A DNA stretch of 53,464 bases, the filler included, from Basidioascus undulatus (Eukaryota): assembly GCA_000826855.1 (NCBI GenBank). It is 3 parts of 3 records of this genome, joined end to end, with 100 filler letters (N's around TTAATTAATTAA, not from the genome) between each part and the next. Parts side by side here need not be neighbours in the genome. Positions count along the whole stretch, not along the records: positions 1 to 21,855 come from JTLS01000313.1; positions 21,956 to 36,880 come from JTLS01000682.1; positions 36,981 to 53,464 come from JTLS01000847.1. One strand, 5' to 3'. Of the stretch, positions 3,954-40,558 are shown piece after piece. The notes beneath the pieces are model-generated. The model did no database searches and had not been told where the DNA came from. It was given only the letters and a program-made list of their open reading frames with translations. The position numbers and the translations under genes are program-made. Positions within the stretch are counted from its first letter, which is position 1. Every line of letters begins with the position of its first letter.

Positions 3954-5030
3954 CGGCTGTCTGGTGCGCACAGGTCTAGTTGTCAGTATCTAGTACGGCG
4001 AGTCCGAGCTCGCCATGCTCTTCCTATAATAAGAGATTAAAAGCTTCTTCTTCTCTGCCGTACCCGCAGCTCTCCTTCTCTGCATTCGCATTTTGATGCA
4101 GATGCGCTGCATCTTCTCTCTCCGCTCTATCTTCCGGCTCGACTTTTTTTTTTGTTTTTGTTTTTATTTTTTTCTTTTTGATTTTTTTTTATAAAAAAAA
4201 TCAAAACAAAAAATAAAAAAGAAAAAAAAAGAGAAGAGCAACGCATCAAAATGCTGAAGAAGAGCACTGCATCTTCTCTCCGTACCGACCCTAATAAGTT
4301 AGAGTGATGCGATGCTCTCTAACCCCCCCCTGCATTCTCTCTTCTCTGCTCTTCCCTGCGGCGTACCGACTGCATTCTGATGCGTAGAGGAGAGGAGCGG
4401 AGAAGAAGAACTGATGCGGTGGGGGGGTAAGGCTGGAAGAAGAAGGACCCTAATAAGTAAGACTGCGGCGTACCAGTGTAGTGAGCATCGTAAGACAATG
4501 GAAAGGGTCTGCTGGACTGACAGGCTTGCAAGTGCCCGTGTGCGTCAAGTATCGTGAGACAATAGTACAGCCGCCCCCTCCGCTCTCTCTTCCGGCTCCC
4601 CTTACCCCCCCCGCATTCTCTCTTCCATGCTCTTCTTCTTTGGAAGAGAGAGCCGAGAAGAAGAACTGATGCAGGGGGGTTAGAGAGCATAAGAAGAAGA
4701 GCACTGCATCTTTGCATTTTGATGCGCTGCTCTCTCTTCCCTGCTCTTCGAAGGCGAAGCCGGAGGGAGCTGAAAGAAGAAGGACTACGGACCCCCATGG
4801 GGGTTTAGAGCGGTAATGCCGTGGGGGAGACAATCGCTATGGATAGGCTCCTGTACCTGGCGAGGGTTGCACCGTTAGAGTATAGTTTGCTCCCCCCTAC
4901 GGGCTACGGACTCCTCTTGCAGGGCTTCGCAGAGAAGTGAGACAACGCATCACTCTCTCTAACCCCCCCTGCCGTACCTCTCCTCTTCGCATCAGAATGC
5001 AGTCATTGGGAGGGGCAGCATTCTTCTCCT

Positions 5031-5125
5031 CTCACTACGCTTCTTTTTTATTTTTTTCTTTTTGATTTTTTTTTATAAAAAAAATCAAAACAAAAAATAA
5101 AAACAAAAGCAGTGGGGGAGGGCAG
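5031..5125. repeat. Long A/T hairpin element (representative copy)
   Basis: T-rich arm, TTTTATAAAA centre, A-rich arm. Related copies at ~28-103, 4141-4232, 6642-6746, 20762-20817, 37345-37385, 38277-38349, 38556-38659, 39471-39542 and 40201-40266. Confidence 0.9.
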
Positions 5126-5267
5126 CATTCAGACTGCATCAAAATGCGGAATGCGGAGGGGGTAAGACTAATAAGTAAGACCCTAATAAGTAAGAGAAGA
5201 TGCAGTCTTACCCTAATAAGTTAGGGAAGGGGAATGACGCATCGTTGCTGCTGGCAGGGTTGAACCG

Positions 5268-6002
5268 CTACTCAGCAGTACGCTCGGCTGACACGTCAAC
5301 CAGAGTGTTCTCGAGCACGCCGATTGCCGGCACGATGATCAAGAACCAGCCGAAGTAGAACGCTGTAGCCGCAGCACCGATTTCGATGTACGGGCTCTCA
5401 ACGTGCTTGGCTCCGATCCATCCGAGCAGAATCAGGTTTACTGCGAAGAACCAGAACGCGGCACGCATCAGTGGTCGGAACTGGGCACCACGCACTCGGG
5501 ATGTGTCAAGCAGAGGCATGGCCAGCAGGATCAATAGCGATCCGAACATGGCCACGACACCGAGAAGCTTGTTAGGAATCGACCGCAGGATGGCGTAGAA
5601 GGGCAAGAGGTACCATTCAGGGACGATCGACGGCGGAGTTTGCATTGGGTTCGCTGGGATGTAGTTGTCGCTGTGTCCTAGTGTGTTAGGCGCGTAGAAC
5701 ACGAAAAGTGACAGTACCAGGAAGAACAGGAAAATGGTAACCAAGTCTTTAAATGTAAAGTATGGGTGCATCGCAAGCCGGTCAGTGTTACCGGTTACGC
5801 CCAGCGGGTTCGAGCTACCGTGTGTGTGCAGTGTCATCAGGTGCACGACCGCCAGCGCAGCCAACAGGAACGGTAGCAGGTAGTGCAGGCTGAAGAACCG
5901 GTTCAACGTTGCGTTGCTTACGCTAAACCCTCCCCAGACGAATTCAACGAAGTCTTGTCCGATCCATGGGATGGCGCTAAGTAGGTTTGTGATAACTGTG
6001 GC
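5268..6002 (-). CDS. cob: Apocytochrome b, exon 3 ([13 protein letters not shown]...PEWY...stop)
   Basis: Contains ATVITNL, RFFSLHY and the PEWY motif, and ends in TAG. The preceding intron ends in G. Confidence 0.97.
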
Positions 6003-6918
6003 CAGCTCTCTACGGGGACAGTAGACTGTTCCGTAGAGGCTCGACTGTACATTAAGCGGCTTATTGGGTAAGCCACCCACGAGCGAGGCAGTCAGTAGCG
6101 GAGGAGGAACTCCGAGGGTCTTGAGCCATCTTATGCTCTTGACCGTTATAGCTCGTGTTGCCAGGCTGACGACCATATTGGCACGCAACACTGCAAGCCG
6201 CGTTCACCCTATCACTGCATCGCATTTCCGCTCCTTACTTATTAGGGTCCGTAGTCCTTCTTCTTCTCTGCTCCCTAACCCCCCCCGCATTTCCGCTCCC
6301 CTCCCCTACGCATCAAAATGCAGGGAGGAGCAGCGCATCAAAATGCAAAGATGCAGGGGGGTAAGAGAGCCGGAAGAGAGAGCAGCGCATCAAAATGCAA
6401 AGATGCAGTCCGTAGGGCGGTGGGGGAGGCCTACAGCTGCAAGGTGCCTAGCAGGGAAGTCAGCTGACTATGGCTAACACTCCGCAGGAGAGATGCCCGT
6501 TCAGCTTGTATCGCATCGCCGGGACAATATACGGTCGGACGATCGCAGTGAGTCACCCAGCATCGAGCCAACCATAACCGAGACGGCAGACTGACTGTGC
6601 GGTCCGATTCGTTGTTCCGCGGGCACGCGCGGTGCTCCGCTCTTCTCTTTTTTTTTCTTTTTCTTTCTTTTTTATTTTTTGTTTTGATTTTTTTTATAAA
6701 AAAAAATCAAAAAGAAAAAAATAAAAACAAAAACAAAAAAAAAAGTCGAGCAGAAAGACCGAAGCGTAGCGATAGGCGTTACAAACAGAGCGAGTACAGG
6801 CCTCTGGCTGTGGAACTCTAGTAGCCATGTAGGGCACCGCATCTTCTTCTTATGCTCTCCCCTACGCATCCTGCATCAAAATGCGATGCAGGGAGAGCCG
6901 GAAGATAAATGCAAAGGA
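6003..6918 (-). other. Group I intron 2 of cob (after CDS nt 429), repeat-invaded, with an endonuclease relic
   Basis: Lies between SLWG and ATVIT with U|...G boundaries. Core GCTACTGACTG...GCTTAATGTACAGTCG at ~6042-6100. Confidence 0.9.
6552..6626 (-). pseudogene. Relic of a LAGLIDADG homing endonuclease (VPAEQRIGPHSQSAVSVMVGSMLGD)
   Basis: Hand translation gives RIGPH...GSMLGD, resembling the first motif of cob-intron LAGLIDADG_2 proteins. No intact ORF remains. Confidence 0.6.
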
Positions 6919-6954
6919 ACCCCATAGAGACATCTGACCGTAAGGTAGTACGTA
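6919..6954 (-). CDS. cob: Apocytochrome b, 36 nt exon 2 (YVLPYGQMSLWG)
   Basis: The minus strand reads TAC GTA CTA CCT TAC GGT CAG ATG TCT CTA TGG GGT, exactly filling the gap between exons 1 and 3. It is absent from the ORF track. Confidence 0.95.
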
Positions 6955-8344
6955 CAACCTCTCCACTACTAACAATTACACATTACTTTTAGTAGAAGTT
7001 GTACCTAGTCAACTAGTCAATCCCAGATCTCTCTTTTCTGACTAGCATCATCCTAGGCCTTGAAGATTGTTAAAAACAATCCAGAGGTCCGACTGTACAT
7101 TAAGCACCATTTCAGGCACCCACTAGTGACCCAGTCTGTAGCGATTGTACATACAACCGACGGTCTGAAAAGGTAATGACTTTTTTTGACCGTTTTCACT
7201 AGTATCGCCAGAAAGCTAAAACTAACTTTCCAACATCTCTGTCAAGATGTTCTACTGATCTCCATACATTATAGTGTACGAAATCCCTTTTCTCTATGTA
7301 GATTTACAAGGGATATAACAGTAGGACTATGAGTGTGTACTATATTGTCTATTTAATCTTTATCTGCATCTGCATCAAAATGCGGAATGCGGTGAGGGAA
7401 CATCCCTCTATTGAGAGAATAAGCCATTGTCGTTTAACAATACCATCCGCTTTAAGTGCACGTTGAATTGTCTTTTCACCGCAACCTAGAAAATGAGCTG
7501 CTAGTTTAATGTTAGAAAAATTTTTTTTTTTTCACTAATGTGGGAGGGGTGGATCCATCTAGTGCTGAAACAGTAACTGGTCGTTGATTTACAATACACT
7601 TAGTCCGAGTTTCAGCACTCATTGGTGGACGTGATAGAGCAGCTATTTGTATTTTAGCTCGTGTTTCTCCCATTAGGGGAGGGATAGCGACTTGTTTCGA
7701 TTAAGTGCTCCAATTCGATCTCTGCGAAGCCGCTCTTGTGAATAGTTGTCTTTCATCTTCTGCTTATTTTCTTCGGTATGCTTATAACCGAAAGTATTAG
7801 AAGCCCTTCTTCTTCTCTGGAAGAGGGAGGTGCAATATTGTATGATGGCTTAACTAGTTTAATGTATTGATCTTCAAGTGCAAGAAGGTCCTGTAGATTA
7901 ATTTTAGTGATAGGACCAGGAATAGTAGCAACTACTACAAAAGCAAATTGATTTAGACCATATTTTTCCGCTCTAACCCCCCATGGGGGGTAAGAGCAGA
8001 AGAACAGCTGCTGCTACGAGACGATTTCCAGCAAAAATAAAAAGATGTTTGTATAGACGAGCATAAAGATTGCCAGTAATAGCACTACCAACGTAACATT
8101 TACCGTTAACTAGATTAACAACCAAGTATACTCCAGCATAAGGTTTTAGTAGTTTGTAGGCTATTGACTTAACTGTTTGTTTATGCAAATTCTCGAATAC
8201 AGCTACAGGAGAAAACCCATACTTGTTAAGAATTAGCTGTAGTCGATCAGAAGCAATAATTGGAAGATTACTTAGACAAGAAATAGTGGAATATTCGCAT
8301 TCACTATTTATTATAGTACACACCCATTTTGGGCAACATGTGAT
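6955..8344 (-). mobile_element. Group I intron 1 of cob (after CDS nt 393, ID-like core) with a GIY-YIG ORF
   Basis: Follows TAFLG (GGT) and ends in G. The core at ~7089-7210 is nearly identical to that of cox1 intron 2. The intron is AT-rich relative to the exons. Confidence 0.92.
7395..8344 (-). pseudogene. GIY-YIG homing endonuclease, in frame with cob exon 1, broken by repeat insertions
   Basis: [18 protein letters not shown], then after insertions KYGLNQFAF...LEDQYI...YNIAP, GYKHTEENKQKMK (NUMOD3-like) and IKLAAHFLGC. A stop at 7973 comes from an inserted hairpin. Confidence 0.88.
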
Positions 8345-8737
8345 ACCCAGGAACGCGGTCGCCATCATCACGATAAAAATAACTACACCGACTGACCACG
8401 GCAGAATACGCGGCGATCGGTAACCACCGTAGTACAGGCCACGGGCGATGTGCAGGTAGACGAATACGAAAAAGAACGACGCTGTGTTAGCGTGCAAGTA
8501 TCGCAGTAGCCAACCGTAGTTTACATCACGCATGATATGTTCAACGCTGATGAATGCCATGTCAACGTTCGGCGTGTAGTGCATCGCCAAGATGATACCA
8601 GTCACGATCTGGATACCAAGGCACGTGGCTAGCAGCGAGCCGAAGTTCCACATGTAGCTGATATTAGCCGGCTGCGGCGAGTCGACGACGTAGCTGTTGA
8701 CCAGTGCCAGTAGCGGATGGGACTTGAGTAGTCGCAT
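8345..8737 (-). CDS. cob: Apocytochrome b, exon 1 ([10 protein letters not shown]...ATAFLG)
   Basis: Contains [17 protein letters not shown] and [11 protein letters not shown]. It is 393 nt, and the three exons total 1164 nt. Confidence 0.97.
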
Positions 8738-9862
8738 AGTGCTGTATGGCTCGACGAGACCGTGATCGCCTGGCTCATACCGGTGGCTGAGTCCGGGCGA
8801 CATCGACTCGTATCTCGGGTGAGCAGTCAGGCTGACTGTGCTGTGTGGTTGTCAGTCAGTCCGAAGGGGGAGAGTGTGTACTGACTGTGTAATTCGTGTG
8901 CTGAGTCCGGCTGCTGTACAACCGTGCAAATTCGTGTGGTTGGTACCGTAGTACCCAGTGGCCTCCTTCTTCTTCTCTTCCCCTGCAGAAGAAGAAGTAG
9001 ATGCGGGGGGACGAAGAGAGAACGAGACACTGCGTGAGCTGTGACGGGCTGCTACCTTTAATTCTGAGGCATCGTGGGAGAATGGCTGTACGATCGCACC
9101 GTAGTCACGTACGAGTTGACAGCTGTGTGAGACTGTAGCCAGGTGTTGGCTTCGCATCGGCAGTGAGACGACGGCAATGTGGTCAACTTTCTGCCCTTCC
9201 CCCGCATTCGCTACCCCTCTGTCTTTCTCTCTCTCTCTCTCTTCCGGCTCTTCCTCTGCATTCCGATGCGGAGAGGAGAAGAGCACCGCATCCCTTCGAA
9301 GATGCAGAAGAAGCCGGCTCTTCCCCTGCGGACTGCATCTTTTCTTACTAATAAGAGAAGATGCAGTGCTCCTAAGAGCGGAAGTAGATGCGGGGGGGGA
9401 GAGTATCTTCTGCTCTTACCCCCCCACCGCATTCCGCATTTATCTTCCGGCTCTGCTCCTTCTTCAGCATTTTGATGCGTTGCTCCGCTCTTAGGAGCAG
9501 AGCCGGAAGAGAGAGCGGAGCACAAGAAGAAGATGCAGATGCAGGGGTTAGAGCGGAAAAGCAATGCGGGGGAAGGGATAGGGGCAACGCATCACTCTAA
9601 CCCCCCCCTGCGGCATTCTGACTGCGGCATTCTTCTTGCAGACTGCATCTTCTCTCTCCGCTCTAACTTATTAGGGTAAGAGCAGTCCGTAGGGGGAGTA
9701 CCTCTCCTCTTCGCATCAGAATGCAGAGGGCAGACTAATAGGTAAGAGAAGAGGGCTTCGTCTTCTCTTACCCCCCTGCGGCGTACCGACCGCATCACTC
9801 TAACTTATTAGTCGGTACGGAGAGAAGATGCAGGGGGGGTTAGAGAGAAGGGTGCTGTGAGC

Positions 9863-9933
9863 TGCCGCCTATCCGAATCGAACAGATGTTCACTACTTAC
9901 AAGGTAGGCGTTCTACCACTGAACTAAGGCGGC
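9863..9933 (-). tRNA. trnT: Mitochondrial tRNA-Thr(UGU)
   Basis: GCCGCCT/AGGCGGC acceptor stem, anticodon loop CTTGTAA, T loop GTTCGATT. Confidence 0.88.
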
Positions 9934-10610
9934 TGCCATGTGCTCAGCCTGACTTTCACCGCTGACTGACTATTGTGAGACAAGCGGCATCGCTCACGCA
10001 TCGAGCACGCTTCCTTTACTGGCCTTCCTGTCGGCAGCATAGCACTGAGGGCAAGCGCAAGACGCATTGTCTCACGATATATATTGTCTCTCTCTTCGCT
10101 CTCCCTGCATTTTGCTTCGAAGGCCAAGGGGGAGGAGCAGAAGGCGAAGCCCTTCTCTCTTCCGGCTCTGCTCTGCTCTGCTCTGCTCTGCTCCTAAGAG
10201 CGGAGCGGAGCGGAAGGAGCAGAGAAGAAGAAGCCCTTCATTCGCATTTTGATGCAGATGCAAAAGGGTGAGGAGAGCCTCGCATCCCCTCTGTCAGCAC
10301 TGCATCTTCTCTGCATCTTCTGCTCCGGAGGAGCGGTGATGCGCTGCTACGTACCGACTAATAAGTTAGAGTGATGCGCTTCTTCTTCCTGGCTCTGCTC
10401 CTAAGAGCGGAGCAGAGAAGAGAGTGCGGGGGGGGAGAAAAACAAAGGCGAAAGAAGAAGAAGCGATACGACAGGCAGACAGTCAGGCACAGCAGTACGG
10501 CGTCGGAGTTGCTCAGTCGGTTCGGTACCATAGCGTGTTGTCTCGGCAGTGCACTCTCCTACGGACTGCTACGCACTCGGAGAGGAAGAGGCCCGTTCTG
10601 CTTCCATAAT

Positions 10611-10681
10611 GATCCACGACCGGAATCGAACCGGCATTGTCTGCACGAAAAGCAGTTGTCCTACCGTTGGACGACGTGAAC
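10611..10681 (-). tRNA. trnE: Mitochondrial tRNA-Glu(UUC)
   Basis: Cloverleaf with anticodon arm CTGC-TTTTCGT-GCAG and T arm CCGG-TTCGATT-CCGG. Confidence 0.85.
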
Positions 10682-11396
10682 GCCCAGTCGCACTGACTGA
10701 CCTGTGATGGCTCACTCTCTCCCCCACCGCATCAGTTCGCAGAATGCAGCATTTCCGCTCCCCCCACTACGCTTCTCTGCATCTTCTGCTCCGGAGGAGC
10801 GGTGATGCGCTGCTCCTCCTCCCCATCTCTCTCTCTCTTCCGGCTCTGCTCTGCTCTGCTCCTAAGAGCGGAGCGGAGCGGAGCACCGCATCACTCTAAC
10901 CCCCCCTGCATTTTCGAAGTGATGCGGGGGGGGGGGTAAGAGAAGATGCAGAAGAAGAAGCCGGCTCTGCTCTGCTCTGCTCCTAAGAGCGGAGCGGAGC
11001 GGAGCACCGCATCACTCTAACTTATTAGTCTCCAAGAGGTACTCCCCCTGCGGCGTACCGACTGCTCCCCCCCCTTCGCATTACTCTAACCCCCTGCATT
11101 CGCATTTTGATGCAGATGCGGTGGGGGGGTAAGAGAAGATGCAGGGAGAGCGGAGAGAAGATGCAGAAGAAGAAGCGCTTTTCTCTAACTTATTAGTCGG
11201 TACGTAGCAGCGCATCACCGCTCCTCCGGAGCAGAAGATGCAGAGAAGAAGCAGTCTGCAAGAAGAATGCAGCAGTCAGAATGCCGCAGGGGAGAGCACT
11301 TCACTGGGAAAAGCAGTGAGGTGCTAAAGATGCGGTGAGAGGGGACGCGAAGCCCTGCCTTTAAGGGGGTGGAGGGCTGGTGTTTATTTTCTTTTA

Positions 11397-11435
11397 GCAC
11401 GAAAAGCATGTGTCCTACCGTTAGACTACGTGGGC
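11397..11435 (-). pseudogene. Truncated second tRNA-Glu(UUC) (5' half only)
   Basis: About 33 of 39 nt match the 5' half of the tRNA-Glu at 10643-10681. There is no T arm or 3' acceptor strand. Confidence 0.7.
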
Positions 11436-11459
11436 GATCTGTTTCTTGGCTACCGTGAT

Positions 11460-11530
11460 ATGCGAGCACTGGAGTCGAACCAGTTCTAACGAGTCATGAG
11501 CTCGCTATGCTACCGTTACACCAGCTCGCG
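11460..11530 (-). tRNA. trnM: Mitochondrial tRNA with CAU anticodon (Met, possibly initiator)
   Basis: Anticodon arm GCGAG-CTCATGA-CTCGT and T loop TTCGACT. It has a C1.A72 mismatch, as in initiator tRNAs. Confidence 0.85.
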
Positions 11531-11570
11531 TGTCTCCTTCCGACTGATTAAATTCTGCTGGAGTGAACCG

Positions 11571-11603
11571 GCTACCTTTAACGTATTACAAACGTCTCAC
11601 GAT
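11571..11603 (-). promoter_or_regulatory. Candidate bipartite mitochondrial promoter upstream of trnM (dyad motif, 10 nt, TAAAGGTAGC)
   Basis: The minus strand reads ATCGTGAGACGTT-N10-TAAAGGTAGC, 40 nt before trnM. The same arrangement occurs upstream of cob (9051-9083) and trnR (17685-17712). Function is inferred. Confidence 0.5.
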
Positions 11604-11905
11604 GTCTTACTTAACTCGGTTGCTAGTCGATTGTCTGTGGTGGACCTGAGTCGGTCAGTACTTGCTCTTTGCTAATTGCCTCACGATGCAAGATAAAAAT
11701 CCGTCAGGCTAGCACTTCTTAAAGTACGATGACTACGGCGTGGTCTGCGATGGACTGACAGTGAGTAAGCGGCACTTCTTCTTCTCTGCTCTTCTTCCGC
11801 TCCGCTCTTAGGAGCAGAGAAGAAGAGAGAGCCGGAAGAGAAAAATAGGATCTCCTGCGGACTGCTAAAGGTAGCAAGTCAGCAGCTCAACACGCAACGC
11901 TAGCC

Positions 11906-12673
11906 ATGACGCAATTCACTGTGCTATCGCCACTAGAGCAGTTCGAGGTCACCAGCCTACTGCAGCTCAGTGCACCAGTTCTCGGCGGTACAGTACTGTC
12001 TCTGACAAACCTGGGACTGTACGCCCTGATCGTAACCGCACTGCTGCTAGGCACTCACTACGCAGCCAGCAACGACCACCGACTTGTACCGAGCCGATGG
12101 TCACTGGCGCTTGAGTCACTGTACGCTACTATCCAAGGGATGGCCCGTGAGCAAATCGGACCACGGAACGAAGTGTACCTGCCGTTCATCTACACCCTGT
12201 TCGTGTTCGTGCTCGTGGCTAACCTGAACGGTAACGTGCCGTACGGGTTCACAGTTACAACTTCGGCAGTCGTTTGTCTTGGTGTCAGCGCTGCCATTTT
12301 CCTGGGTGTCACAGTGCTCGGACTGGCTCGTCACGGTCTGCACTTCTTCGCCTTCTTCGTGCCTAGTGGTACACCGCTAGCTCTGGTACCGCTGTTGGTG
12401 CTGATTGAGCTGATCTCGTACGCTGCCCGGTCTGTATCGCTTGGTGTGCGACTGTTTAGCAACATGGTGGCTGGACACACACTGCTGAAAATCCTTGCTG
12501 GTTTCTTGGCACCAGTGTTCACAAACGGCGTACTACTGTTCGTCGTTGGACTAATCCCATTCGCTATCTTCATCGCTCTGATCGGCCTTGAAATCGCGGT
12601 CTCAGTCATCCAAGCGTACGTGCTGACAGTGCTGACTTGCTCGTACATCCGTGACGCTATCGAGCTGCACTAG
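11906..12673 (+). CDS. atp6: ATP synthase F0 subunit a
   Basis: Contains SPLEQF, PLLVLIELISY, SLGVRLFSNMVAGH and LEIAVSVIQAYV. Confidence 0.97.
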   Translation: MTQFTVLSPLEQFEVTSLLQLSAPVLGGTVLSLTNLGLYALIVTALLLGTHYAASNDHRLVPSRWSLALESLYATIQGMAREQIGPRNEVYLPFIYTLFVFVLVANLNGNVPYGFTVTTSAVVCLGVSAAIFLGVTVLGLARHGLHFFAFFVPSGTPLALVPLLVLIELISYAARSVSLGVRLFSNMVAGHTLLKILAGFLAPVFTNGVLLFVVGLIPFAIFIALIGLEIAVSVIQAYVLTVLTCSYIRDAIELH

Positions 12674-14176
12674 CCCACTCCCCTTGCAGTCTGCAAGAAG
12701 AATGCTGCCCCTCTGCATTCTGATGCGAAGAGGAGAGGTACGGAGTCCGTAGCGCATTACTCTCTAACTTATTAGTAAGACCCTAATAAGTTAGAGAAGA
12801 TGTAGAGAATGCCGCTCTGCGAAGCCCTGCATCGCATTCTCTTCCGGCTCCACTTACTTATTAGTTAGAGAGCAACGCATCACCGCTCTAACCCCTGCAT
12901 CTGCATCTTCTTCTTATGCTCCGCTCCGCTCCGCTCTTAGGAGCAGAGCAGAGCAGAGCCGGAAGATAAATGCGGAATGCGGTGGGGGGGTAAGAGCAGA
13001 AGATGCTGAAGAAGATGCAGATGCGAAGGGGGGGAGAGTGGAGACGGCATTGCCATTGTCCCACGATACGATACGTTACATGAACTACGAGACCGCTCAC
13101 AACTGTAGTACAGCAGGGCTCCCCTTCTCTGCTCTTCCCTGCGGCGTACCGACTGCATTCTGATGCGTAGAGGAGAGGAGCCGAGAGGCTGGATGATGTA
13201 TCCTCCTCTGCTCTCTTCCCTGCTCTCTCCTACGGACCCCTGCATCAGTTCTTCTTCCCTGCCCCTAATGGGCTTCGCAGAGAAGGCTCTTCTTCTTATG
13301 CTCCGCTCCGCTCCGCTCTTAGGAGCAGAGCAGAGCAGAGCAGAGCCGGAAGAGAGAGCAGTCTGCAAGAGGTACGGAAGAGAGAATGCGGTGGGGGGTA
13401 AGAGAAGGCGAAGCCCTCCCCCTACGCATCTGCATCAAAATGCGAATGCAGGGAGCTACGCATCACTCTAACCCCTGCATTCTCTCTTCCAAAGAAGAAG
13501 AACTGATGCGGTGGGGGGTAAGAGAAGATGCAGTGCTCTGCTCTGCTCTGCTCCTAAGAGCGGAGCGGAGCGGAGCGGAGCGGAGCGGAAGAAGGACTGC
13601 TCTCTCTGCGAAGCCCTGCTCCCCCCCGCATCTGCATCTTTGCATTTTGATGCGCTGCTCTCCGCTCTTAAGAGCACTGCATCTTCTGCTCTCTTCCGGC
13701 TCTTAAGAGCAGAGAAGAAGGGGGAGCGGTGATGCGATGCTCTCTAACCCCCCTGCATCTGCATCTTCTTCTTGTGCTCCGCTCCGCTCCGCTCTTAGGA
13801 GCAGAGCAGAGCAGAGCCGGAAGATAAATGCGGAATGCGGTGGGGGGTAAGGCTGGAAGAAGGGGGAGCGGAAATGCGATGCAGGGCTTCGCCTTCTCTT
13901 ACCCCCCCACCGCATTTTGATGCAGATGCAGGGGTTAGAGAAGATGCAGTCCTTCGGGGAAGGAGGAGCCGTACCTCTCCTCTCTCCCCCCCACATTACC
14001 GCAAGGCCAAGCCAGGTAACTCTCCCGGCTCTGCTCCTAAGAGCGGAGCACTGCATCTTCTCTTACTTATTAGTTAGAGTGATGCGGTGCATCTTCTCTT
14101 ACTTATTAGTCTTACCCTAATAAGTTAGAGAGAGTGATGCGGTCTGCAAGAGGTACGGAGAGGAGGAGAAGATGCG

Positions 14177-14232
14177 GTCCGTAGTCCGTAGTCCGTAGTC
14201 CGTAGTCCGTAGTCCGTAGTCCGTAGTCCGTA
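14177..14232. repeat. Tandem heptamer (GTCCGTA)x8
   Basis: Directly visible in the sequence. Confidence 0.95.
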
Positions 14233-14319
14233 GGGGCGGACTAGTCGCTGGTTACTAACTTATATATTGTCTCACGATACCTAGTACATACGTGACCAAG
14301 GGGGCTTGCGTTTGTAATA

Positions 14320-17964: not shown

Positions 17965-18037
17965 GCGTCTTTAGCTAAATGGTCAAAGCGTCCGACTTCG
18001 GTTCGGAAGACTGTGGGTTCGAATCCTTCAAGACGTT
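17965..18037 (+). tRNA. trnR: Mitochondrial tRNA-Arg(UCG)
   Basis: Anticodon arm TCCGA-CTTCGGT-TCGGA, T loop GTTCGAAT, acceptor GCGTCTT/AAGACGT. Confidence 0.88.
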
Positions 18038-18553: not shown

Positions 18554-18667
18554 GGCTCAGTCGGTTCAGCTGGACTGGACTTGAGTGGACTGAGCTGGAC
18601 TGAACTGATGGTTCTCTAACTTATTAGTCTGCAAGAGGTACGAGGGGAAGTGATTGACGGTGTAGTA

Positions 18668-28900: not shown

Positions 28901-29528
28901 GTCCCTGCTCGGCTCAACCTCGCAGATTCTCTGCCGCTCTGTTCTGCGCCTTACTGTTGCGGATCCCTGACTCCGTCTCGTCCCAGGCGGCTTACCCATC
29001 TTCCCTTCAAATGCGCAGCAGCTCTGAAGGGTCCTATAGCTGCTGGACACTCCGAACTGCGGGTCTAAGTGGCTCGAAGTAAACGATCGAGTGTGCTGTG
29101 TGTGACATGAAGGAGATTGCGAAGACCGACGTTCCATTTAAACGACTATGCTTTTTTTTTTACGAGGGTTATACTTGAGTTGAAATATTTCCAGCACGCT
29201 CATATAGCGGCGCGCACTTTCAGTGAATAATCTCATGAACTGACAATGCGTCCGCTAAAGAATTACTACTAGAAACTTGTACTGTGCGGCCTATGAGCGC
29301 TAGCCGCCTTCAGATAGCACCTTAGTGTTTCTCAGAAGCGATAACTGAGCCTTTCCAAAGCAAGTCCAATGCACCGTACACTCACCCGTACACTCACACA
29401 CAAGATCAGAGTCAGCGAGAATTGAGTCAAATGGCCGTGATGCGAAAGGACTACCGGTATATCTATCGAACAGAACGAAGGAGGGTACAAATAGACGAGG
29501 TGAATGGACAAGGGAGTAAGCGAGACGC

Positions 29529-31085: not shown

Positions 31086-34000
31086 CTTTCCAACAGAAAA
31101 CTGTGGATACAATGGGAGTCTAGTGAGCGGACTGTTGCCGGTGTAGAGCAGAAAGGGCGCAATAGGCGAGGCGTACAAAGGAAGGAGTGGGGATGGGGGA
31201 AGAGAGCGAATGTGAAAATCGCCGCTCTTGAGCTGGCCGGAGAGGCCTGCCGGACCCACCCATTTCCATTTCGGACCTAAGCCAAACACGACCGCCCATC
31301 GCCGACGCTTGCCCAGTGCCTCATCTCAGGTTTCACTTTGTTCCTGCATTCCAGACCGCGGTTTTTTTTTTCAAACATGTATCGAGCGCAACGGGTCCCA
31401 AAAGGTGTATGCTCCCGAGATACTTTTTTTCTGACAAAGTATCGCGAAGTAGAACCACAAGGAAACTGAAGGACTACTCGCGATTGGCCTGCGGACCTGA
31501 CTTCAGTGCTGCTCTGACCCGACCCCGCGGCGCCCACTTGAGAAGACCGGACGGGGTCGGCCCGCGTTTCCCCGGCCGCCGGGCAAGCATGTGCATTCGC
31601 CGTCTTTTTGGGTCTTGGAAAGAAGACTGGAAGTTGTCCTGCAAGGAGCTGTTGCACACAAATAACGTTCTCGAACGGCGGTGGCAACAAAAATTGTCGA
31701 ACAAGACTATCAGAAGGAACCTGCGACGCTGGCTGTCAGTCGGTGGCGGCTTCGGCCGCGGCCGGTGAGAGTCGCAAGCTCGCAGCGTTGCAACGGGCTG
31801 CGACAAAACTTCCTTTCGTGTATAACAACACATAAAAAGCGCATTACGCAAACATTAATCAAACAGTCTCCTATACATCGTTCAATAACAAGGGGAGGAT
31901 GTCCAATACCGACGTCGCGAAGGCGCGGTGTTGGACTTCAGACACGGCGCCGAAACGGCACATATGTGGCAGCGTTGCATCCCCTATCACTCCGAATCAG
32001 ATGCAGTTCGTCGCGGGACAGCATTGAATTTTTGTCTCCGCCAGCCAGGTGGCATGGGCTCGAGGAGTCGAGCACGGTGGTCCTAGTTGTGAGGCGACGG
32101 ACGCTGCATGCACTGGACCGGACACCTGGAGACTGCGCCTGTTCAAAGATCATAAGGGGGCTGCAGCTGGTTCTCGAGAAATTAGGACGTAAAAACCTTA
32201 TGTTTCTGATGATCCGTATGCTGGGAGCGCAAGCCTTGTGCATTGCTGTGTGACTTATCTCCTCAATAATCTGGCCGCTGGCGGCGCGCGACGAGTGACG
32301 CGCGGTCGTCGACAGCCTCTATCCAGAAAGTCACCAAGGAAAGGCTTTCCGCCGAAAACTCAGCAGTGGCAAAAGGTGTGGCTAATGAAGTTCCTGCGGA
32401 CAAACAGCTGCCAAGCGTTCCAGTTGTTCATGTGTCTTAGCCTCATGACCCGCTCGTTGTGTTCATAGGGAACCACAGAGAACAGCGACGCTGGAATGCA
32501 CTCATCTTCTGCAATTATACTTACGGATGCAGTGGACTCGAATTCAAAATGGAAAGCCACACCGGAACGCCGTATGAGCGTTGTCAGGGCGAAGTGACTG
32601 CATTACATTCCGTGAAGAGTCTGTCTTGAGTCCTGCTTGAAGCGCTGTTCGAAGTCATCGGGGTAGGTTATCTGCCTTTTCAGCAATTTTGAGTTTGTGG
32701 GAAGCTGTCTGAGAACCTGTCATCACGATAAGTCGAGATGACGTGTGTGAATAACGCCATGGCAGCGCACTGCAAGTAAGGGGCAGCCGGATTTCATGTA
32801 CTTTCATTATTTCAAAAGGTGCTATGCACATGTATCCCACCAGGACGCATACGTGCATACCATAAGCCTGTAAAATGACAGTCCAGGAAGCGAACACCTC
32901 TTATCACCCGCTGGACACCATCCCCCGCCGCACAACAAAGCCCTCTGTTGGCACTGGGTGAGTCCACCGACACCTTTAGGCATGCCCTGGATCCCCCAGG
33001 CCCTTCTAATGATGAGAATTGACTCAAAAATGGGTTCTACCTTCAAGGTCACACTACAAGGGCGTGGACGACACCGCTGCGCAGATGATCCCGTTCGCTT
33101 GCTGTTCAAAGGGAGGATTGCGGAACATTTGATGGGCTATGGTAAGACCGATTATGACGAAAAAAGTCCCTACTTGGGGATATACGCCATTTTGGGACCT
33201 CAAGAGCCCGAGCGTTAGCAACTCAACGATCCACCCACTGATATGGGACGGTTGAGAACGCTAACTTCACACCCTCGTCAGCTTCCATTTCTTCGGCGCT
33301 CAATACGACTACTCAGGAACACAAAGAGTCCAAGGAAGGGTACATATATACTTCTAGCATATCGATGTTCTAAGACGCATCCGTTTCAGCAATGGCACAA
33401 GCATGCACGGCCCGGAACGTGGCTGCATCCTGGCAGGCCAGAGCTCTATGCAGCCGGGACCGATTTGCATTTACATCGTATTATTAAACACAATGTTTTC
33501 AGTGGCTCTGTTGGGCCTGAACAGACTTGGTCAATGGCCGTTGTGCGTCTTTACTCCCGGACTCGGGGAGGACTTGAGTGAATGCGCAAACCTCCTTCTA
33601 CCTTCTCCGACACCGGCAAGCAGCTCAGAAGAAACACAGTTCAAAAGCGTTGTCCTATAACAAGCTAAAGATTTACCAGCTCATGAAGTCCTAGCTCACT
33701 GAAATCACATGCGAAAACCCCAAGCTCTGCGTGCCTGACGGCGCGCATGCGAGTCCAGCCAATGTACTCTGTCAATAGAAGAAAAGACAATGAAGATAAA
33801 CCATACGTTGCGCTGACTTCGTGTGCGGGGAAGGTATACTAAGGACCCCAACAAGTACGGTGGGTGCCACTGTCGGGCCGGGGGCCTTTCCAGTAAAAGA
33901 GAAGACGAGCGAAGGCGAGGAGATGTGGGAATGTCCTGCAGTGCGAGTGAACGTGACGCCTCCGAGAACCAGGCTATCGTTCCGAGCGTTTGATGCACAT

Positions 34001-35718
34001 CGATCTTGTAAGCAGAGGCAAAAAAACAGAGGCTTACTATTCCCAGGCTAGGCCAGAACGCAGAGCGTGATCTGCGTTTCATTGTCCGACCGACGCCGCT
34101 GCAGATAGTTATAGCGCTTTTCCTGCCCGCCCCGTACACCCAGCGTCTGAGTCTCCACCACAGAAGCATTCACACTGGAAGCGTGCCGCACACGCCAGCT
34201 ACCGGCGTGCGGACCGTGGGCGAAACGCGAAACGAGTCTGATCGTTAGTCCTGCGGTGCTCGAGCGAGCGAATGAATAAGAGACTGTACAGTGGGAGTGG
34301 CCGGAGTGGGATGCACCGTGCAGTAGATTGCGAAAGGGTTGGCGTGGCGGATGAGCGGAAGGATGGACAGCAGATGGTACGACCGAGAGTGTTTTCGAAA
34401 TCGACATTCTAGCGCAGAACGGACGAAGAAGTGGGAAGTGCACTGGGACGGGCACGACCTGCAAGAGAAGTCCGCGCGAGAGAGAGGCCCGAAAGAGAGA
34501 GGGGGGGCTACAGGTGTAAGATGGAGAGCAGCGATTCGGATGAGGTGGTAAGGTTTTAGCACCCGTTTCCTGGGCTTTGAGAGACTCGTCGAACTGCGGT
34601 CGCTGGGAGTGCGGGAATGAAGCGAGAGGAGGATGCGAGCAGCCAGAGCGAGGTTATGTTTGAAACGGGAAAAGTGAAGAAAACGAGTGTGCGCCGCTAT
34701 CCTCCCCAAGTCCGCATGAGCACGGTGGGCGTGCACTGAGAGAGATTCTGGGAGAGTCCGAGGAGCCCAGCGTTCAACAAGATTGAGGACGGGGTTGGAG
34801 ATGTACAAGCGTGCGCTGCGGGACACGCCAGGTAGGGGGTTGGTGCGAGCGAGTTCGGGCGTGCGTGCGAAGAAAAAACATTGAGAGGTTTTGAACGAGG
34901 GACTGTCCGAAATGGGAAGCGTGCAAAACAAGTAATGTGCTCAGGGCGGAACGCGGCTGTCCGTCGCGGATATCTGCTGTGAAAGACAGGCGACGTAAGC
35001 GCGTAGGAGTGGCCATGTGCCTCCGTGCGATTAGAGGATTCGACCGAGAGGGTTTGAGGGGAGGTTGCATGGAGTGAGCGGCCAGCGCTGTGCTGTGGAC
35101 ATGGAGTTCGGACCCTCGAGTGGGGAAGCAGTGAGCCGCGAGCCGCGAGCCTGGTGCAGCGGTGAGCTTCTGAGAACGGGCGACAGACACCAGCCGTCAA
35201 TCATCATCTGTAATGCATGCGACATGAGGCGTGAGGCGTGAGCGGTGACGTGTGAGGCCCGAGGCAAGCCGCGAGCGATGGTCGCCTAGTGTTCGTTGAA
35301 GCTCGGTGCGCTCCAGCAGTATCGATTGAACCGTGAGCCCCACAGCGGGATGTGCCTTTTCCTCAGGGAAGACGGCGTGTTAGGATACGCATAGCGGCGT
35401 AGCGGGCTGCAGACGAGACGTGGTACAGTTGGCCAGGTAAGTGCAGCATGGCAAGGCAGGTGGTGCTCGATCGAAGCGGGCACTCGCTCGCTCGCGAGTC
35501 CGAGTTGAGTAGGGTACTTTCTGCGAAGCAAACGAGAAGATATCCCAGGAGGGATGGGTGATTCGAGCGATACGGGCATGGAATCCCTAGCCGAAGCAGA
35601 TGTGCGAAGCATTCTCAAAATCGAAGCCGAAGCAGCCCATGCCATCCTATCTTATCCACACAGTAAGTATCTCCCTCCACCCCCACGCAAAGCCTGAACA
35701 AACCCGACGCACCTTGCA

Positions 35719-36391
35719 TCATTGCCTCCCCGCCTTCTCCCTCCACGCCCTCAACCTCCGCCTCAGCTCCTCCGCCCCAATCCGATGGCGCATGATCTCC
35801 TCCCCCTCCAGATGGAGGACCGGGATGTCGTACTGCTCCGCGCGCACCCCACACCTCATCAGCCTCCTTTTCGATATCCTCTCCACACCTCCACTCCACT
35901 CCACTTTCCCCTTCATCGCTTCACTTAGGGGACGGACAGGAGGGAAGGCAGGGAGGAAGGGAGGAAGAGAGACGGACCTGATAAGCCCTCCTCCACCTAT
36001 GCACCTCCTCGTCCGGCCGTTCAGGGGCCGCGGGGGGGTCGCGGATGTTGTAGAGCTCGAGGTGGAAGGGCGTCTGCGCTCCGACCCGTCAGTTTCCCTT
36101 CCCCGTTGCTTTCCTTCCTGCTTGGGGGCCCACCTCTGCTTGCACGGCGTGGAGGACTTCTTTCGCGTCCTGCCCAGACCAGAGAAGGATGTTCAGTAGG
36201 AATGGAGGAAGGAAGGAAGGGAGGGTAGGTGGGGAGGTGTGGGGTTGGGGATGGGAGGGGAAAGGAAGACGCACCTCACACAACGAGCACTCCCTCCCGC
36301 CCGTATACAGCGTGAGCTTCGGCACCCTCCCACCCTGCGCCGAGTAGAACCTCCTTCCTGCCAGACGCGCTGTATTTCTTAAAAACAACAT
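35719..36391 (-). CDS. Glutaredoxin-like (DUF836) protein with a mitochondrial-type presequence, spliced
   Basis: MLFLRNTARLAGRRFYSA...LTLYTGGRECSLCE|DAKEVL...|YDIPVLHLEGEEIMRHRI, showing CxxC and YDIPVLH motifs. Confidence 0.85.
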
Positions 36392-36880
36392 GATGTGCAG
36401 GCTCGAAGAACAAGACCAGGGACGCTGGAGAATGAAATGCGAGGAGCGTGGGAAAAGCCCTCGATGATGGCAGAGAGGCGAGAGCAAGAAACGCGGGTTG
36501 CGCTTTGCGACGGCCAATTTACGCGGTCGAGAGTCGTCTTCGCTCGCCTGCCTTCTTCCCCGTTCGCTCTCCCGGCCTACACTACTTTGCGCGCCTGCAG
36601 ATATCCTAGGCGTGCGCCTGAGCAGCGACGAGCACCGCAGACCACGGATCACCGACGGACGAGCGACGGCTGCGATCGAGCGGCGCAGCGGGCGTGGCGT
36701 AGCGGAGGTGAGTGTTCGCCGGGTGGGGGGGGTGTATGCTGAGGCTCCGAGGGAGCAGGCATCGAATAGGTGGGAGTACGGAGGGGCATGCTGGTTGGGG
36801 AGCACCGGGGCACGGTGGGGTGGGATGGGCGGGCGCGGGAGGGCTGGAAGGCGGATGGGACTGGCGGCATGGGGAGCAGC

Positions 36881-36980
36881 NNNNNNNNNNNNNNNNNNNN
36901 NNNNNNNNNNNNNNNNNNNNNNNNTTAATTAATTAANNNNNNNNNNNNNNNNNNNNNNNNNNNNNNNNNNNNNNNNNNNN
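36881..36980. other. Artificial contig linker N44-TTAATTAATTAA-N44
   Basis: Same spacer as at 21856-21955. Confidence 0.97.
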
Positions 36981-37085
36981 GCTGCATTCTGATGCGCTGC
37001 ATTCTGATGCGCTGCATTCTGATGCGCTGCATTCTGATGCGCTGCATTCTGATGCGCTGCATTCTGATGCGCTGCATTCTGATGC
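36981..37085. repeat. Tandem 15-mer (GCTGCATTCTGATGC)x7 at the contig end
   Basis: Directly visible. The unit contains the mtDNA palindromic module GCATTCTGATGC. Confidence 0.95.
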
Positions 37086-37484
37086 GTAGAGGAGAAGAGC
37101 ACAAGAAGAAGATGCAGATGCGGAGGAGAGGAGCACTGCATCTTCTGCTCTTACTTATTAGGGTCTTACTTATTAGTTAGAGAGCGGAAATGCAGTCAGA
37201 ATGCCGTAGCGCATTACTCTAACTTATTAGTCTGCCCTCTGCATTCTGATGCGAAGAGGAGAGGTACGGAGAGAAGATGCAGTCATTGGGAGGGGGGTTA
37301 GCGCATCTTTGCATTTTGATGCGCTGCTCCTCCCCCACTCGCATGACTTTTTGATTTTTTTATAACAAAAAAAATAAAAAAGAGAAATGCAGAGAGGGGG
37401 AGAGCGGAAATGCAGAGAAGGAAACACCGGCGCTGACACTGCACAGCACGCTATAGGTGACGCACACATAAGCCATGAGACCGA

Positions 37485-37556
37485 GAGCCCTTAGCATAAC
37501 GGTAGTGCACTGCCTTGTCGTGGGAGACGGTGCCGGTTCGAATCCGGTAGGGCCCG
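37485..37556 (+). tRNA. trnD: Mitochondrial tRNA-Asp(GUC)
   Basis: Anticodon loop TTGTCGT, T arm GCCGG-TTCGAAT-CCGGT. Confidence 0.82.
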
Positions 37557-37590
37557 AGAGCACTGGTCTATGGCGTGTTGAGTGACCTAG

Positions 37591-37662
37591 TAGGAGCAGC
37601 AGGGATCGAACCTGCGACCAACAAGTTAAAAGCTTGTCGCTCTGCCACTGAGCTATGCTCCC
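37591..37662 (-). tRNA. trnK: Mitochondrial tRNA-Lys(UUU)
   Basis: GGGAGCATAGCTCAGTGGCAGAGCG-ACAAG-CTTTTAA-CTTGT, T arm GCAGG-TTCGATC-CCTGC. Confidence 0.92.
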
Positions 37663-38195
37663 GATTCGACTGGCTCTCTGCATCTCTCTCTTCGAAGGCG
37701 AAGCCGGCTCTTAAGAGCAGAGAAGAAGAAGTGATGCGCTCTCTCTTCGCTTGACTTTTTTTTCTTCCCCCCCTCTGCATTTCCGCTCCTCCTTCTCTGC
37801 ATTTTAATGCACTAATTAGTGGGGGGAGCAGTCCGTAGGGATGCGGAGTCGGTACGCCGCAGGAGGGGAAGGGTGCGGCACTGTTCAGCACAGTTCTGCA
37901 CGGCTCTCTCCCAATGACTGCCTCTTCTCTCTCCCTCCGCTCTATCTTCCGGCTCTCCCCCTTCGCATCTGCATCAAAATGCGATGCAGGGAGAAGGAGA
38001 GCACCGCATCACTCTTACCCCCCCGTGGGGGGGTTAGAGAAGATGCAGAAGAAGAGCACTGCATCTTCTCTTACTTATTAGGGGTTAGAGTGATGCGGAG
38101 AAGAAGAAGGACGGACCCTAATAAGTAAGACTAATAAGTTAGAGTGATGCGGATGCGGGGGGGGAGAAAAAAAGTCAAGCAAAAGAAGAAAAAGG

Positions 38196-38247
38196 GTGCG
38201 GTACAGTACAGTACAGCACAACCAGCAACGGCGAGACTCGAACTCAC
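38196..38247 (-). pseudogene. Duplicated 3' fragment of tRNA-Gln with flanking sequence
   Basis: CAGCAACGGCGAGACTCGAACTCAC matches CAGGAACGGCGAGACTCGAACTCAC at ~38435-38459 with one mismatch. The anticodon and D arms are missing. Confidence 0.65.
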
Positions 38248-38434
38248 TACCCGACTGGTTGCCACCCTCTCACTACGCTTCTTTTTTATTTTTTTCTTTT
38301 TGATTTTTTTTTATAAAAAAAATCAAAACAAAAAATAAAAACAAAAGCAGTGGCGGAGGACTCAACTGCCGAGTCGATCGACTGAGCACTCAGCATGGCA
38401 CGGTGCGGCACAGCCAGGTACGGTACGGCACAGC

Positions 38435-38507
38435 CAGGAACGGCGAGACTCGAACTCACACTTTCTGCTACCAAAAAGCAGCGAACTGCCGATTGTTCTA
38501 CGTTCCT
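38435..38507 (-). tRNA. trnQ: Mitochondrial tRNA-Gln(UUG)
   Basis: AGGAACG/CGTTCCT acceptor stem. The arm CTGCT-TTTTGGT-AGCAG puts TTG at positions 34-36. Confidence 0.8.
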
Positions 38508-38663
38508 GTGGCGTCACAGCTCGGTGGCAATCAGTCCTCTCCCCCCCACTGCTTGACTTTTGTTTTTGTTTTTATTTTTTTTTCTTTTTTATTTTTTTTA
38601 ATAAAAAAAATAAAAACAAAAAAAATAAAAAAGAAAAGAAAAGAAAAAAAAAGAAAAGCGGAA

Positions 38664-38705
38664 GCAGTCCGCAGTCCGCAGTCCGCAGTCCGCAGTCCGC
38701 AGTCC
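38664..38705. repeat. Tandem heptamer (GCAGTCC)x6
   Basis: Directly visible. It is a one-base variant and permutation of the GTCCGTA array at 14177. Confidence 0.93.
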
Positions 38706-39657
38706 GCAGGGCGGGGTGCAGCACGGTCCTTTCTGAGCCGCGGCTACCTTTAGCAAGCAAGCTGTCCCATGGTATTGTGAGACAAAGGTTGTGCCGGCCT
38801 CTAACTGTCTGCTATCACTGTATAGTGAGACGTTACCTGTGCGCAGCTGTCGTGAAAGCCGTGACAGGTATCGTGGGACGATTAGCATGCTGACTATGCT
38901 GAGCTGTGCGTTGACGGCTGTACCCTTTTTTCTTCTTTTGCTTGACTTTTTCTCCCCCCACTTCTCTCTTCTGGGGAAGAAGAAGCGCTCCTCCCAATGA
39001 CCTAATGACCCCCCTTCGCATCACTCTAACCCCCCCTGCATCAGTTCTTCTTCTCTGCCGTACCTCTCCTCTTCGCATCACTTCGAAGATGCAGAGGGCA
39101 GACTGCTCTTCTTCTTATGCTCTCCCCCCCTACGCATCAGAATGCAGAGGGGGAGCCGGAAGAGAGAGCGGAGCCGAGAAGAGAGAATGCGGTGGGGGGG
39201 GGTAAGAGAAGATGCAGCGCATCTGCATCAAAATGCGAATGCAGAGAAGGAGCAGCGCATCAAAATGCAAAGATGCGGTCGGTACGGAGAGGGGGGACTT
39301 CGCTCTTCCCCTGCATTTGCTTTTTGAACAGATGCGGAGGGAAGAAAAAGAGAGAAAAGCGTAGCGCATCCCCTACGGACTGCTCCCCCCCCTCTCTGCA
39401 TTTTAATGCACTGCATTCTGATGCGGTGGGGGAGAAGGAGGAGCGGAAATGCAGTCTGCCCTCCCCCACTGCTTTTGTTTTTATTTTTTGTTTTGATTTT
39501 TTTTATAAAAAAAAATCAAAAAGAAAAAAATAAAAAAGAAGCGTAGTGAGAGGAGAGGTACGGGGGAGAAAAAAGGAAAAATGCAGTCTGCCCTCTGCAT
39601 CTTCGAAGTGATGCGAAGAGGAGAGGTACGGAGAAGGAGAATGCCGTAGGAGAGCCA

Positions 39658-39740
39658 CGGAAGAGAAGGGAGTCGAACCCTCAAGGACGTGTGTCCAGAC
39701 AGCTAGCAACCGCCTTAACCTTGCCAGTGGCGACTCTTCC
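39658..39740 (-). tRNA. trnS: Mitochondrial tRNA-Ser(GCU)
   Basis: GGAAGAG/CTCTTCC acceptor stem, anticodon loop TTGCTAG, long variable arm GGAC-ACAC-GTCC. Confidence 0.87.
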
Positions 39741-40558
39741 TACAGACTCACGGCTTCCTCTCCTTTAGGAAGGCCGCGGTGACAGTGCCGTACGGTTCTC
39801 CTTCTCCCCCACTGCTTTTCTTCTGCTCTCTTCCCTGCTCTCTAACCCCCCCCTGCATCAGAATGCGGGGGGGGTAAGAGAAGGCGAAGCCGGAGGGGAG
39901 CTACGCATCACTCTAACTAATAAGTAAGAGAAGATGCAGAAGAAGGGGGAGCGGAAAGCGTAGCGCATCCCCTACGGACTGCTCTTACTTATTAGGGTCT
40001 TACTTATTAGTCAGAGAGCGGAAATGCAGTCATTGGGAGGGGCGGATCGCTGCAGTATCGTGAGACAATTGAGTCAACTGGAGCCAACTGCGACCTTTGT
40101 CATGGCTTGGCAGCTAACCTGACTGCAGGCTGACTGCTCCGGCTGTCAGGGTCCGACTGCTCAGCCCTAGTATCGCTTCTTCTTCCCTGCCCCTTGGCCT
40201 GACTTTTTTTTCTTTTTTTTTATTTTTTTTTATAAAAAAATAAAAAAGAAAAGAAAAAAAAGAGAAATGCAGGGCTTCTTCTTCCGGCTCCTAAGAGCAG
40301 AGAAGAGAGAAGGCTCCTCCTTCTTCTTCCAGCTCCCCCTCCGGCTTCGCCTCTAACCCCCTGCATCTGCATCAGCATTTTGATGCGTTGCTCTCTTCCC
40401 TGCTCTGCGAAGCCGGAGGGAGCTGAAAGAAGGGGGAGCGGAAATGCGGTGGGGGGTAAGAGAAGAGCAGGGAAGAGAGAGCAGAGGGGCGGATGAAAGA
40501 TTCGAGGAAAGGAAACCCGAGGGACGCCGGGGAGGGAGGAAGAAAGGAGAAGACTGAC

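Follow-up and report, generated by a model that had tools for sequence, protein, structure and literature searches.

In Drosophila, the protein mTTF binds the junctions of convergent transcription blocks in mitochondrial DNA (mtDNA) and terminates transcription in both directions in vitro (excerpt of PMC3778013). The sites of mTTF, of the sea-urchin mtDBP and of human MTERF1 are alike in being mitochondrial DNA sites at transcription-block borders; mTERF proteins are described as apparently absent in fungi in an excerpt of PMC3981765. In Escherichia coli, the matS/MatP system uses a 13-bp dyad of 5+3+5 build, scattered in about two dozen copies and originally identified in silico (excerpt of PMC3116907). 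Here we analyse a stretch of 53,464 nucleotides from the Basidioascus undulatus assembly GCA_000826855.1 (hereafter the window), in which a preliminary description had noticed a recurrent dyad motif, ATYGT-N3-ACRAT. The dyad is a conserved, oriented pseudo-dyad of 13-16 bp, neither a free-spacer palindrome nor a repeat fragment. From its placement in the sequence, it may be a protein-bound roadblock or insulator marking the borders of transcription units, similar to mTERF sites in mode, a reading that we hold with somewhat less than even confidence.

An oriented dyad in unique intergenic DNA

Three contigs make up the window, separated by N/linker runs at 21856-21955 and 36881-36980. The first (C2990, positions 1-21855) contains cox1, cob, atp6, rns, rps3, nad2, nad3, a partial cox3 and tRNA genes, the second (21956-36880) is non-mitochondrial and holds no perfect dyad, and the third (C2992) consists of mitochondrial-type DNA with four tRNA genes at about 36981-40470 and of nuclear-type DNA beyond. 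The motif had been placed in the mtDNA; this holds for all nine perfect copies of the window, while the window itself is mitochondrial only at 1-21855 and about 36981-40470. Two further mitochondrial contigs (C2988 and C2989) were located via the dyad motif. Since 77 of the 81 occurrences of a repeat-module marker fall within these four contigs, they are taken as all the mtDNA in the assembly (46.7 kb).

The nine perfect dyads and seven near matches listed initially are all present at their positions, the near matches at 21113 and 21141 being one 28-bp tandem duplication, and the early estimate of about 0.1 chance matches agrees with an expectation of 0.10, none of 100 dinucleotide shuffles reaching nine. 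The four mitochondrial contigs contain 21 perfect dyads, none of them in a gene, where 0.07-0.09 copies per 46.7 kb are expected under Markov models of order 2-5 and 0.03-0.23 under a model fitted to unique intergenic DNA. A weight matrix built from 20 of the 21 perfect copies, with a cut-off score of at least 10, retrieves 34 sites; neither the 23.6 kb of genes nor the 27.9 kb of nuclear DNA in the window contains one, and, as first proposed, all of them lie in unique intergenic DNA and outside the repeat modules. Four one-mismatch matches absent from the first list (2608, 7429, 31693 and 38492) score below 6.

Once oriented, the copies take the form RY-ATCGTGAGACAAT-R with an invariant G at position 8. 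Twelve of the 21 perfect copies are letter-identical to ATCGTGAGACAAT, and positions 3 and 8 are C and G, respectively, in all 21 oriented copies, position 11 being A in 16. It had been claimed that the arms are conserved and that centre and flanks vary: the flanks are indeed unrelated, but the variation of the centre is mostly strand flipping. The conserved block spans the 13-mer, the R-Y before it and usually an R after it (about 16 bp). Among the 27 strongest sites, flank identity averages 26% (0.264) with a maximum of 43.5%, so the motif is not a piece of one old repeat, and flank pairing does not extend the palindrome (13/27 at the first base, 2-11/27 beyond). Given these unrelated flanks and the lack of extension, the element is a pseudo-dyad of 13-16 bp and not part of a longer repeat. 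A mobile palindromic element was discarded, as the copies have neither alignable flanks nor an extended hairpin in common. A symmetric homodimer operator with an unread spacer was also rejected: G occupies position 8 in all 16 copies that can be oriented from their arms alone, the centre is GAG in 14/21 and the arms are unequal in 16/21. Thus, of the proposed operator-like site for a dimeric factor, the part that survives is a DNA-level site under selection and linked to transcription, supported by the placement described below; the orientation and asymmetry of the site make a symmetric, free-spacer homodimer operator a poorer fit.

A companion motif and the borders of predicted transcription units

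Word counts in unique intergenic DNA reveal an enrichment of the dyad words and of TAAAGG (14 seen versus 1.75 expected). All 25 non-genic TAWAGG copies that could be scored are in sense orientation toward the next gene, 11-682 bp away, and none is antisense; one further copy, at a contig start, overlaps a palindrome and has no gene to be scored against. Conservation continues outside the search word (R in 25/25, C in 21/25), giving gcTAWAGGWAGC. The yeast mitochondrial nonanucleotide promoter ATATAAGTA aligns with cTAWAGGWA (excerpt of PMC8979003). Like the yeast ATATAAGTA and the Neurospora consensus, TAWAGGWA is short, dispersed and sense-oriented shortly before genes, outside coding DNA; unlike yeast ATATAAGTA, it has G instead of A at the fifth core position and occurs in about 25 copies, mostly serving one to three genes each. 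We infer that TAWAGGWA is a promoter core, a variant of the yeast mitochondrial promoter. Some contigs of a near-identical mtDNA, from four runs of probable DNA, end 8-12 nt after the predicted starts of atp8 and atp9, and about 25 nt before a dyad at atp8; coming from one study, and as contigs cannot show transcript ends, they were not used as evidence.

Transcription units were predicted from the TAWAGGWA cores and the annotation of the four mitochondrial contigs. Relative to these units, the dyad occupies 19 of the 22 border gaps. It is present in all five divergent gaps, between both cores; in six of seven convergent gaps, the junctions of convergent blocks at which mTERF-type sites lie, with the blocks here being predictions and the gap without a dyad measuring 33 bp; and in eight of ten tandem gaps with a promoter core. 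Tandem gaps lacking a core have none (0/7, 1189 unique bases). Within the predicted units, which comprise 42.2% of unique intergenic bases, fall 0/21 perfect dyads (P=1e-5) and 1/34 matrix sites (P=2e-7), and control hexamers display no such bias (12/26, 17/28 and 7/19 within units). Convergent gaps, which contain no promoter core, hold 11 of the 34 sites, three of them 31-35 bp beyond the 3' ends of rns, trnC and atp8, and divergent gaps hold seven. Both dyad orientations are found near promoters and near 3' ends; these and the 11 convergent-gap sites led us to reject the dyad itself as a promoter core. The sequence statistics thus establish that the dyad is enriched, has an oriented consensus, is missing from genes and predicted units, and is present at borders of all three geometries. 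The sites and cores of the window are as follows.

4021-4028, minus strand: candidate promoter core TATAGGAA of cox1; 30 unique bases to the dyad at 4487, modules set aside
4487-4499, plus strand: perfect dyad, cox1/cob tandem gap; score 24.7
4551-4563, plus strand: perfect dyad in consensus form, cox1/cob tandem gap; score 28.5
9053-9060, minus strand: candidate promoter core TAAAGGTA, ahead of cob
9071-9083, plus strand: near-match dyad, 10 bp upstream of the cob promoter core; score 17.9
9972-9984, plus strand: weak near-match dyad in the trnT leader, the sole one of 34 within a predicted unit; score 10.1
10011-10018, minus strand: candidate promoter core, ahead of trnT
10066-10078, minus strand: perfect dyad, 47 bp upstream of the trnT core and downstream of trnE; score 26.8
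11573-11580, minus strand: candidate promoter core, ahead of trnM
11591-11603, minus strand: near-match dyad between the divergent trnM/atp6 cores, 10 bp from the trnM core; score 16.1
11675-11687, minus strand: near-match dyad, trnM/atp6 divergent gap; score 19.4
11866-11873, plus strand: candidate promoter core, ahead of atp6
13055-13067, minus strand: perfect dyad, convergent atp6/rns gap without promoter core; score 25.3
14266-14278, minus strand: perfect dyad, 31 bp beyond the Rfam-defined rns 3' end
15859-15866, minus strand: candidate promoter core, ahead of rns; duplicate copy at 16032-16039
16343-16355, minus strand: perfect dyad between the rps3 3' end and the rns cores; score 23.3
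17374-17381, minus strand: candidate promoter core, ahead of rps3
17685-17697, plus strand: perfect dyad between the divergent rps3/trnR cores, 9 bp from the trnR core; score 21.6
17707-17714, plus strand: candidate promoter core, ahead of trnR
18093-18100, plus strand: candidate promoter core of trnG-nad2-nad3, in a gap without a dyad (a miss)
21113-21125, minus strand: near-match dyad, convergent nad3/cox3 gap; score 12.1
21141-21153, minus strand: near-match dyad, tandem duplicate of the 21113 site
37452-37459, plus strand: candidate promoter core of trnD (C2992 position 472)
38745-38752, minus strand: candidate promoter core of trnQ (C2992 position 1772)
38774-38786, plus strand: near-match dyad, 21 bp upstream of the trnQ core; score 15.2
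38822-38834, plus strand: near-match dyad, absent from the first list; score 13.6
38870-38882, plus strand: perfect dyad, trnQ/trnS tandem gap; score 22.2
39760-39767, minus strand: candidate promoter core of trnS (C2992 position 2787)
40057-40069, plus strand: perfect dyad upstream of the trnS core, 43 unique bases; score 27.0

The rns promoter region is present twice, at 15841-15870 and 16020-16045.

In the model that we propose, the 13-16 bp dyad would be a duplex-DNA site for a sequence-specific, nuclear-encoded mitochondrial protein, and TAWAGGWA would serve the phage-type polymerase as promoter core; on the model of yeast, +1 would fall on its final base. The bound protein would block the elongating polymerase from either side, and dyads would have been purged within units because of this block. 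Such a roadblock would end transcripts in convergent and tandem gaps and protect downstream and opposite promoters from read-through. Binding, the protein and termination at the dyad are what we infer from this placement. The wider picture, of about 25 small units with a non-mTERF boundary protein at nearly every border that blocks both sides and perhaps sets up the neighbouring promoter, is offered slightly more tentatively from the same sequence patterns.

Weighing a boundary role against relatives, nuclear copies and rival readings

Several points weigh against a roadblock or insulator at unit borders. The units are themselves predicted from a motif in the same sequence. The modules also avoid units, only 19.2% of module bases lying inside, and by hand arithmetic the 0/21 figure would then correspond to about P=0.01. 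Two core-bearing tandem gaps lack a dyad, and the distance of the dyad from 3' ends ranges from 31 bp to >1 kb (17-284 unique bases). Divergent-gap sites (7/34) are explained least well: a terminator between two divergent promoters is not obviously needed, and those sites suit a promoter role or a matS-like maintenance role. In addition, the evidence comes from a single genome, the mtDNA of the assembly is incomplete, most of cox3 and several tRNA genes being missing, and the conservation of nuclear copies is biased because most of them were found via the motif itself. Finally, in the best 80 of 554 related metagenomic cox2 stretches (592 kb, 59-83% cox2 protein identity), there is one perfect dyad and no cluster.

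Conservation in relatives, which the preliminary description had put forward as a check, failed among these 80 loci, which include no close relative with intergenic DNA. Eight of the 80 have a single matrix match each (score at most 15.0), no equivalent element emerged when dyads were searched for de novo in the 36 related loci of at least 6 kb, and viral contigs yielded no relative. An AAATC-N3-GATTT look-alike (L073-L075) was set aside as the tips of longer hairpins. As far as tested, the dyad motif is lineage-restricted. In support of the promoter reading, in 32 related loci (the 36 annotated ones minus four near-duplicates), TATAAGWR precedes genes in sense 52 times and in antisense 10 times. 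Yeast-like TATAAGWA or TATAGGTA stands 10-40 bp before many tRNA genes in metagenomic basidiomycete mitogenomes (L058, L088, L092, L127, L130, L073-L075), and is a candidate general basidiomycete promoter.

In the whole assembly, a refined dyad pattern is found 41 times, against five for a reversed control, and 21 copies are outside the mitochondrial contigs. Mitochondria-like flanks accompany 12 of these 21, several are mitochondrial insertions with 77-98% identity, and some of the remaining ones are probably chance matches or contig-end chimeras. In nuclear copies of trnI and atp9, dyad and core are kept and the spacer is altered by substitutions and indels. A trnY piece spread over two contig ends, outside the four contigs, played no part in building the unit model; it forms a unit of one gene flanked by dyads, one lying 15 bp beyond the 3' end and the other 20 bp upstream of the promoter core. 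Protection of dyads by protein during the escape of DNA to the nucleus is not supported, as only six of the alignments listed overlap dyads by hand count. As side observations, one nuclear piece (L029, 1458-1597) carries three dyads inside 140 bp, and three separate nuclear pieces (L047, L050 and L054) carry a dyad with the same following 15 bp.

TFAM sites sit ahead of mammalian promoters, and by analogy the dyad might bind an upstream activator that aids initiation from 9-65 bp before the promoter core, a reading that we consider unlikely. Within 25 bp on the upstream side, a dyad accompanies seven of the 25 cores, and on the downstream side it accompanies none (permutation mean 2.08, P=0.0018); this excess falls to P=0.033 if placement is restricted to DNA outside units. 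The divergent gaps, all five with dyads between both cores, suit an activator, and so does TAWAGG within 56 nt of the 21 copies outside the mitochondrial contigs, pointing away from five and toward none (0.022 expected per site). On the other hand, the spacing between dyad and core is variable (9, 10, 10, 12, 15, 20, 21, 34, 47 and 64 bp, and up to 712 bp across modules), both dyad orientations are present, the 11 convergent-gap sites have no promoter core to activate, and in relatives a similar core has no visible upstream dyad (12 loci, by eye).

Slightly less likely again is a nucleoid-organising, segregation or replication-pause site of MatP/matS type, which would avoid units only since a tightly bound protein blocks transcription. 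The 5+3+5, 13-bp build and the copy number resemble those of matS (23 copies; excerpt of PMC3116907), dyads occur across all four contigs in either orientation, divergent gaps included, and mTTF sites are also replication pauses (excerpt of PMC3778013). However, near-complete border occupancy and closeness to promoters and 3' ends are not predicted by this account, and the dyad has no sequence likeness to matS. As a roadblock, an activator and a nucleoid or replication site all share a protein-bound site, these readings may overlap.

It appears improbable that the dyad is a neutral relic, left as tip or footprint by a former mobile palindrome or representing the dispersed target of a homing endonuclease. 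Mobile modules that also avoid units are abundant (about 15 kb of 46.7 kb), and the 5-N3-5 dyads of another lineage are the hairpin tips noted above; nevertheless, the copies have unrelated flanks and no extended palindrome, 12/21 remain letter-identical though the spacers are fully turned over, and a 13-bp unit without a common flank has no evident means of spread. The endonuclease variant starts from the I-CreI target in large-subunit rRNA, which has the 10-bp core TCGTGAGACA in common with the dyad; a foreign large-subunit rRNA contig scores 11.8 at its I-CreI-type site, and an I-CreI variant substrate holds 12 of the 13 dyad bases (excerpt of PMC1635285). In a literal string search of the literature, the I-CreI paper is the only one with the dyad string among the matches listed. 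I-CreI reads 22 bp (11 per half-site), whereas dyad conservation ends at about 16 bp and the first base differs, and a LAGLIDADG target of I-CreI type was therefore rejected. Searches with PF00961 and PF03161 (PF14528 was not searched) detected no intact I-CreI-like gene in the incomplete mtDNA assembly, only the cox1 intron open reading frame (ORF) and two broken nuclear relics. With no candidate gene, a domesticated endonuclease as the binder was dropped and the resemblance left as coincidence or lead. The relics (L230, C2562; L232, C1654) are broken, GC-rich nuclear LAGLIDADG ORFs, one of which carries group I intron sequence, and are absent from the four mitochondrial contigs; the relic compared with solved structures is I-OnuI-like, not I-CreI-like. 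The organism's own rnl has no dyad match because of a two-base, apparently compensatory change in the conserved dyad-like hairpin (L042 9205-9225), reflecting either GC drift or avoidance of the site.

The yeast dodecamer is an RNA-level 3' processing signal. An equivalent RNA-level role for the dyad, in 3' processing or as a hairpin, is very improbable: some copies do lie 31-35 bp past 3' ends and the arms can pair on one strand with G-U wobble, but the sense-strand orientation is mixed (24 versus 13 site-gene pairs), the seven sites upstream of both divergent promoters should not be transcribed and the folding energy (0 to -0.9 kcal/mol) allows no stable hairpin, which together indicate a duplex-DNA signal and, with the flank pairing, led us to reject RNA hairpin and extended palindrome.

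Genome context and known systems

The mtDNA has about 54% G+C and no TGA codon in its core protein genes, which are thus read with the standard code. The nearest named proteins to cox2 are those of Rhizoctonia (80-82%) and named nad2 matches reach 50-52%, which places the mtDNA in a basidiomycete with no finer placement. About 15 kb of the 46.7 kb consists of shuffled short modules, introns included (window 3200-21500 and 36981-40470; L040, L042), of several types: GC-rich purine/pyrimidine blocks, small palindromes and long T/A hairpins. One module (L040 7225-7273) is swapped in near-identical contigs of other runs, which suggests ongoing mobility. Repeat modules are also inserted in the group I-type introns of cox1 (961-2640, with a double LAGLIDADG ORF) and cob (6003-8340, with interrupted ORF remnants). 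Truncated pieces include a trnE-like one at 11382-11452 and a trnQ-like duplicate at 38215-38255. Near 40480, within a single contig, mtDNA passes straight into a nuclear gene, either a mis-join or a very recent insertion, and 50-90 bp of identical mtDNA at the ends of many nuclear contigs looks like an assembly artefact. The assembly also contains foreign DNA, namely a 27% G+C cox3 in which eight TGA codons occur, and a large-subunit rRNA that shares about 63% identity with that of the organism (L227 = C1206; L173, L177 = C952). The nuclear part of the window carries an ADP/ATP carrier-like gene with introns on the minus strand at 29500-31090 (read by eye), and a nuclear tRNA-Lys lies at 25836-25910.

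In the literature consulted, mostly open-access text, no description of the dyad motif, or of a promoter or boundary element in basidiomycete mitochondria, was found; supplements and mitogenome records might mention the motif. If a roadblock or insulator at unit borders is correct, the boundary protein and its dyad would constitute the first DNA-level terminator or insulator to be defined in the mitochondria of fungi. A GC-rich mitochondrial genome reveals signals hidden in AT-rich ones. The dyad offers a specific pulldown bait, the model makes sharp predictions of transcript ends, and TAWAGGWA supplies a candidate consensus for basidiomycete promoters. If each unit has a border element, this could also account for the tolerance of heavy gene shuffling and repeat invasion.

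Among known systems, matS differs in sequence and is confined to the Ter macrodomain, whereas the dyad is asymmetric, follows unit borders and is spread over all four contigs with no single domain; identity with matS was rejected on these grounds. A profile search for mTERF proteins (PF02536) gave no match, and neither did its control in this fragmented genome. Because this search is uninformative and the family is reported as apparently absent in fungi, the dyad cannot be filed as an mTERF site. Fly mTTF has two sites per genome, as against about 30 dyads here, tandem and divergent gaps included. The dyad would resemble the sites of Drosophila mTTF and human MTERF1 in mode, yet operate at nearly every unit and through a different protein.

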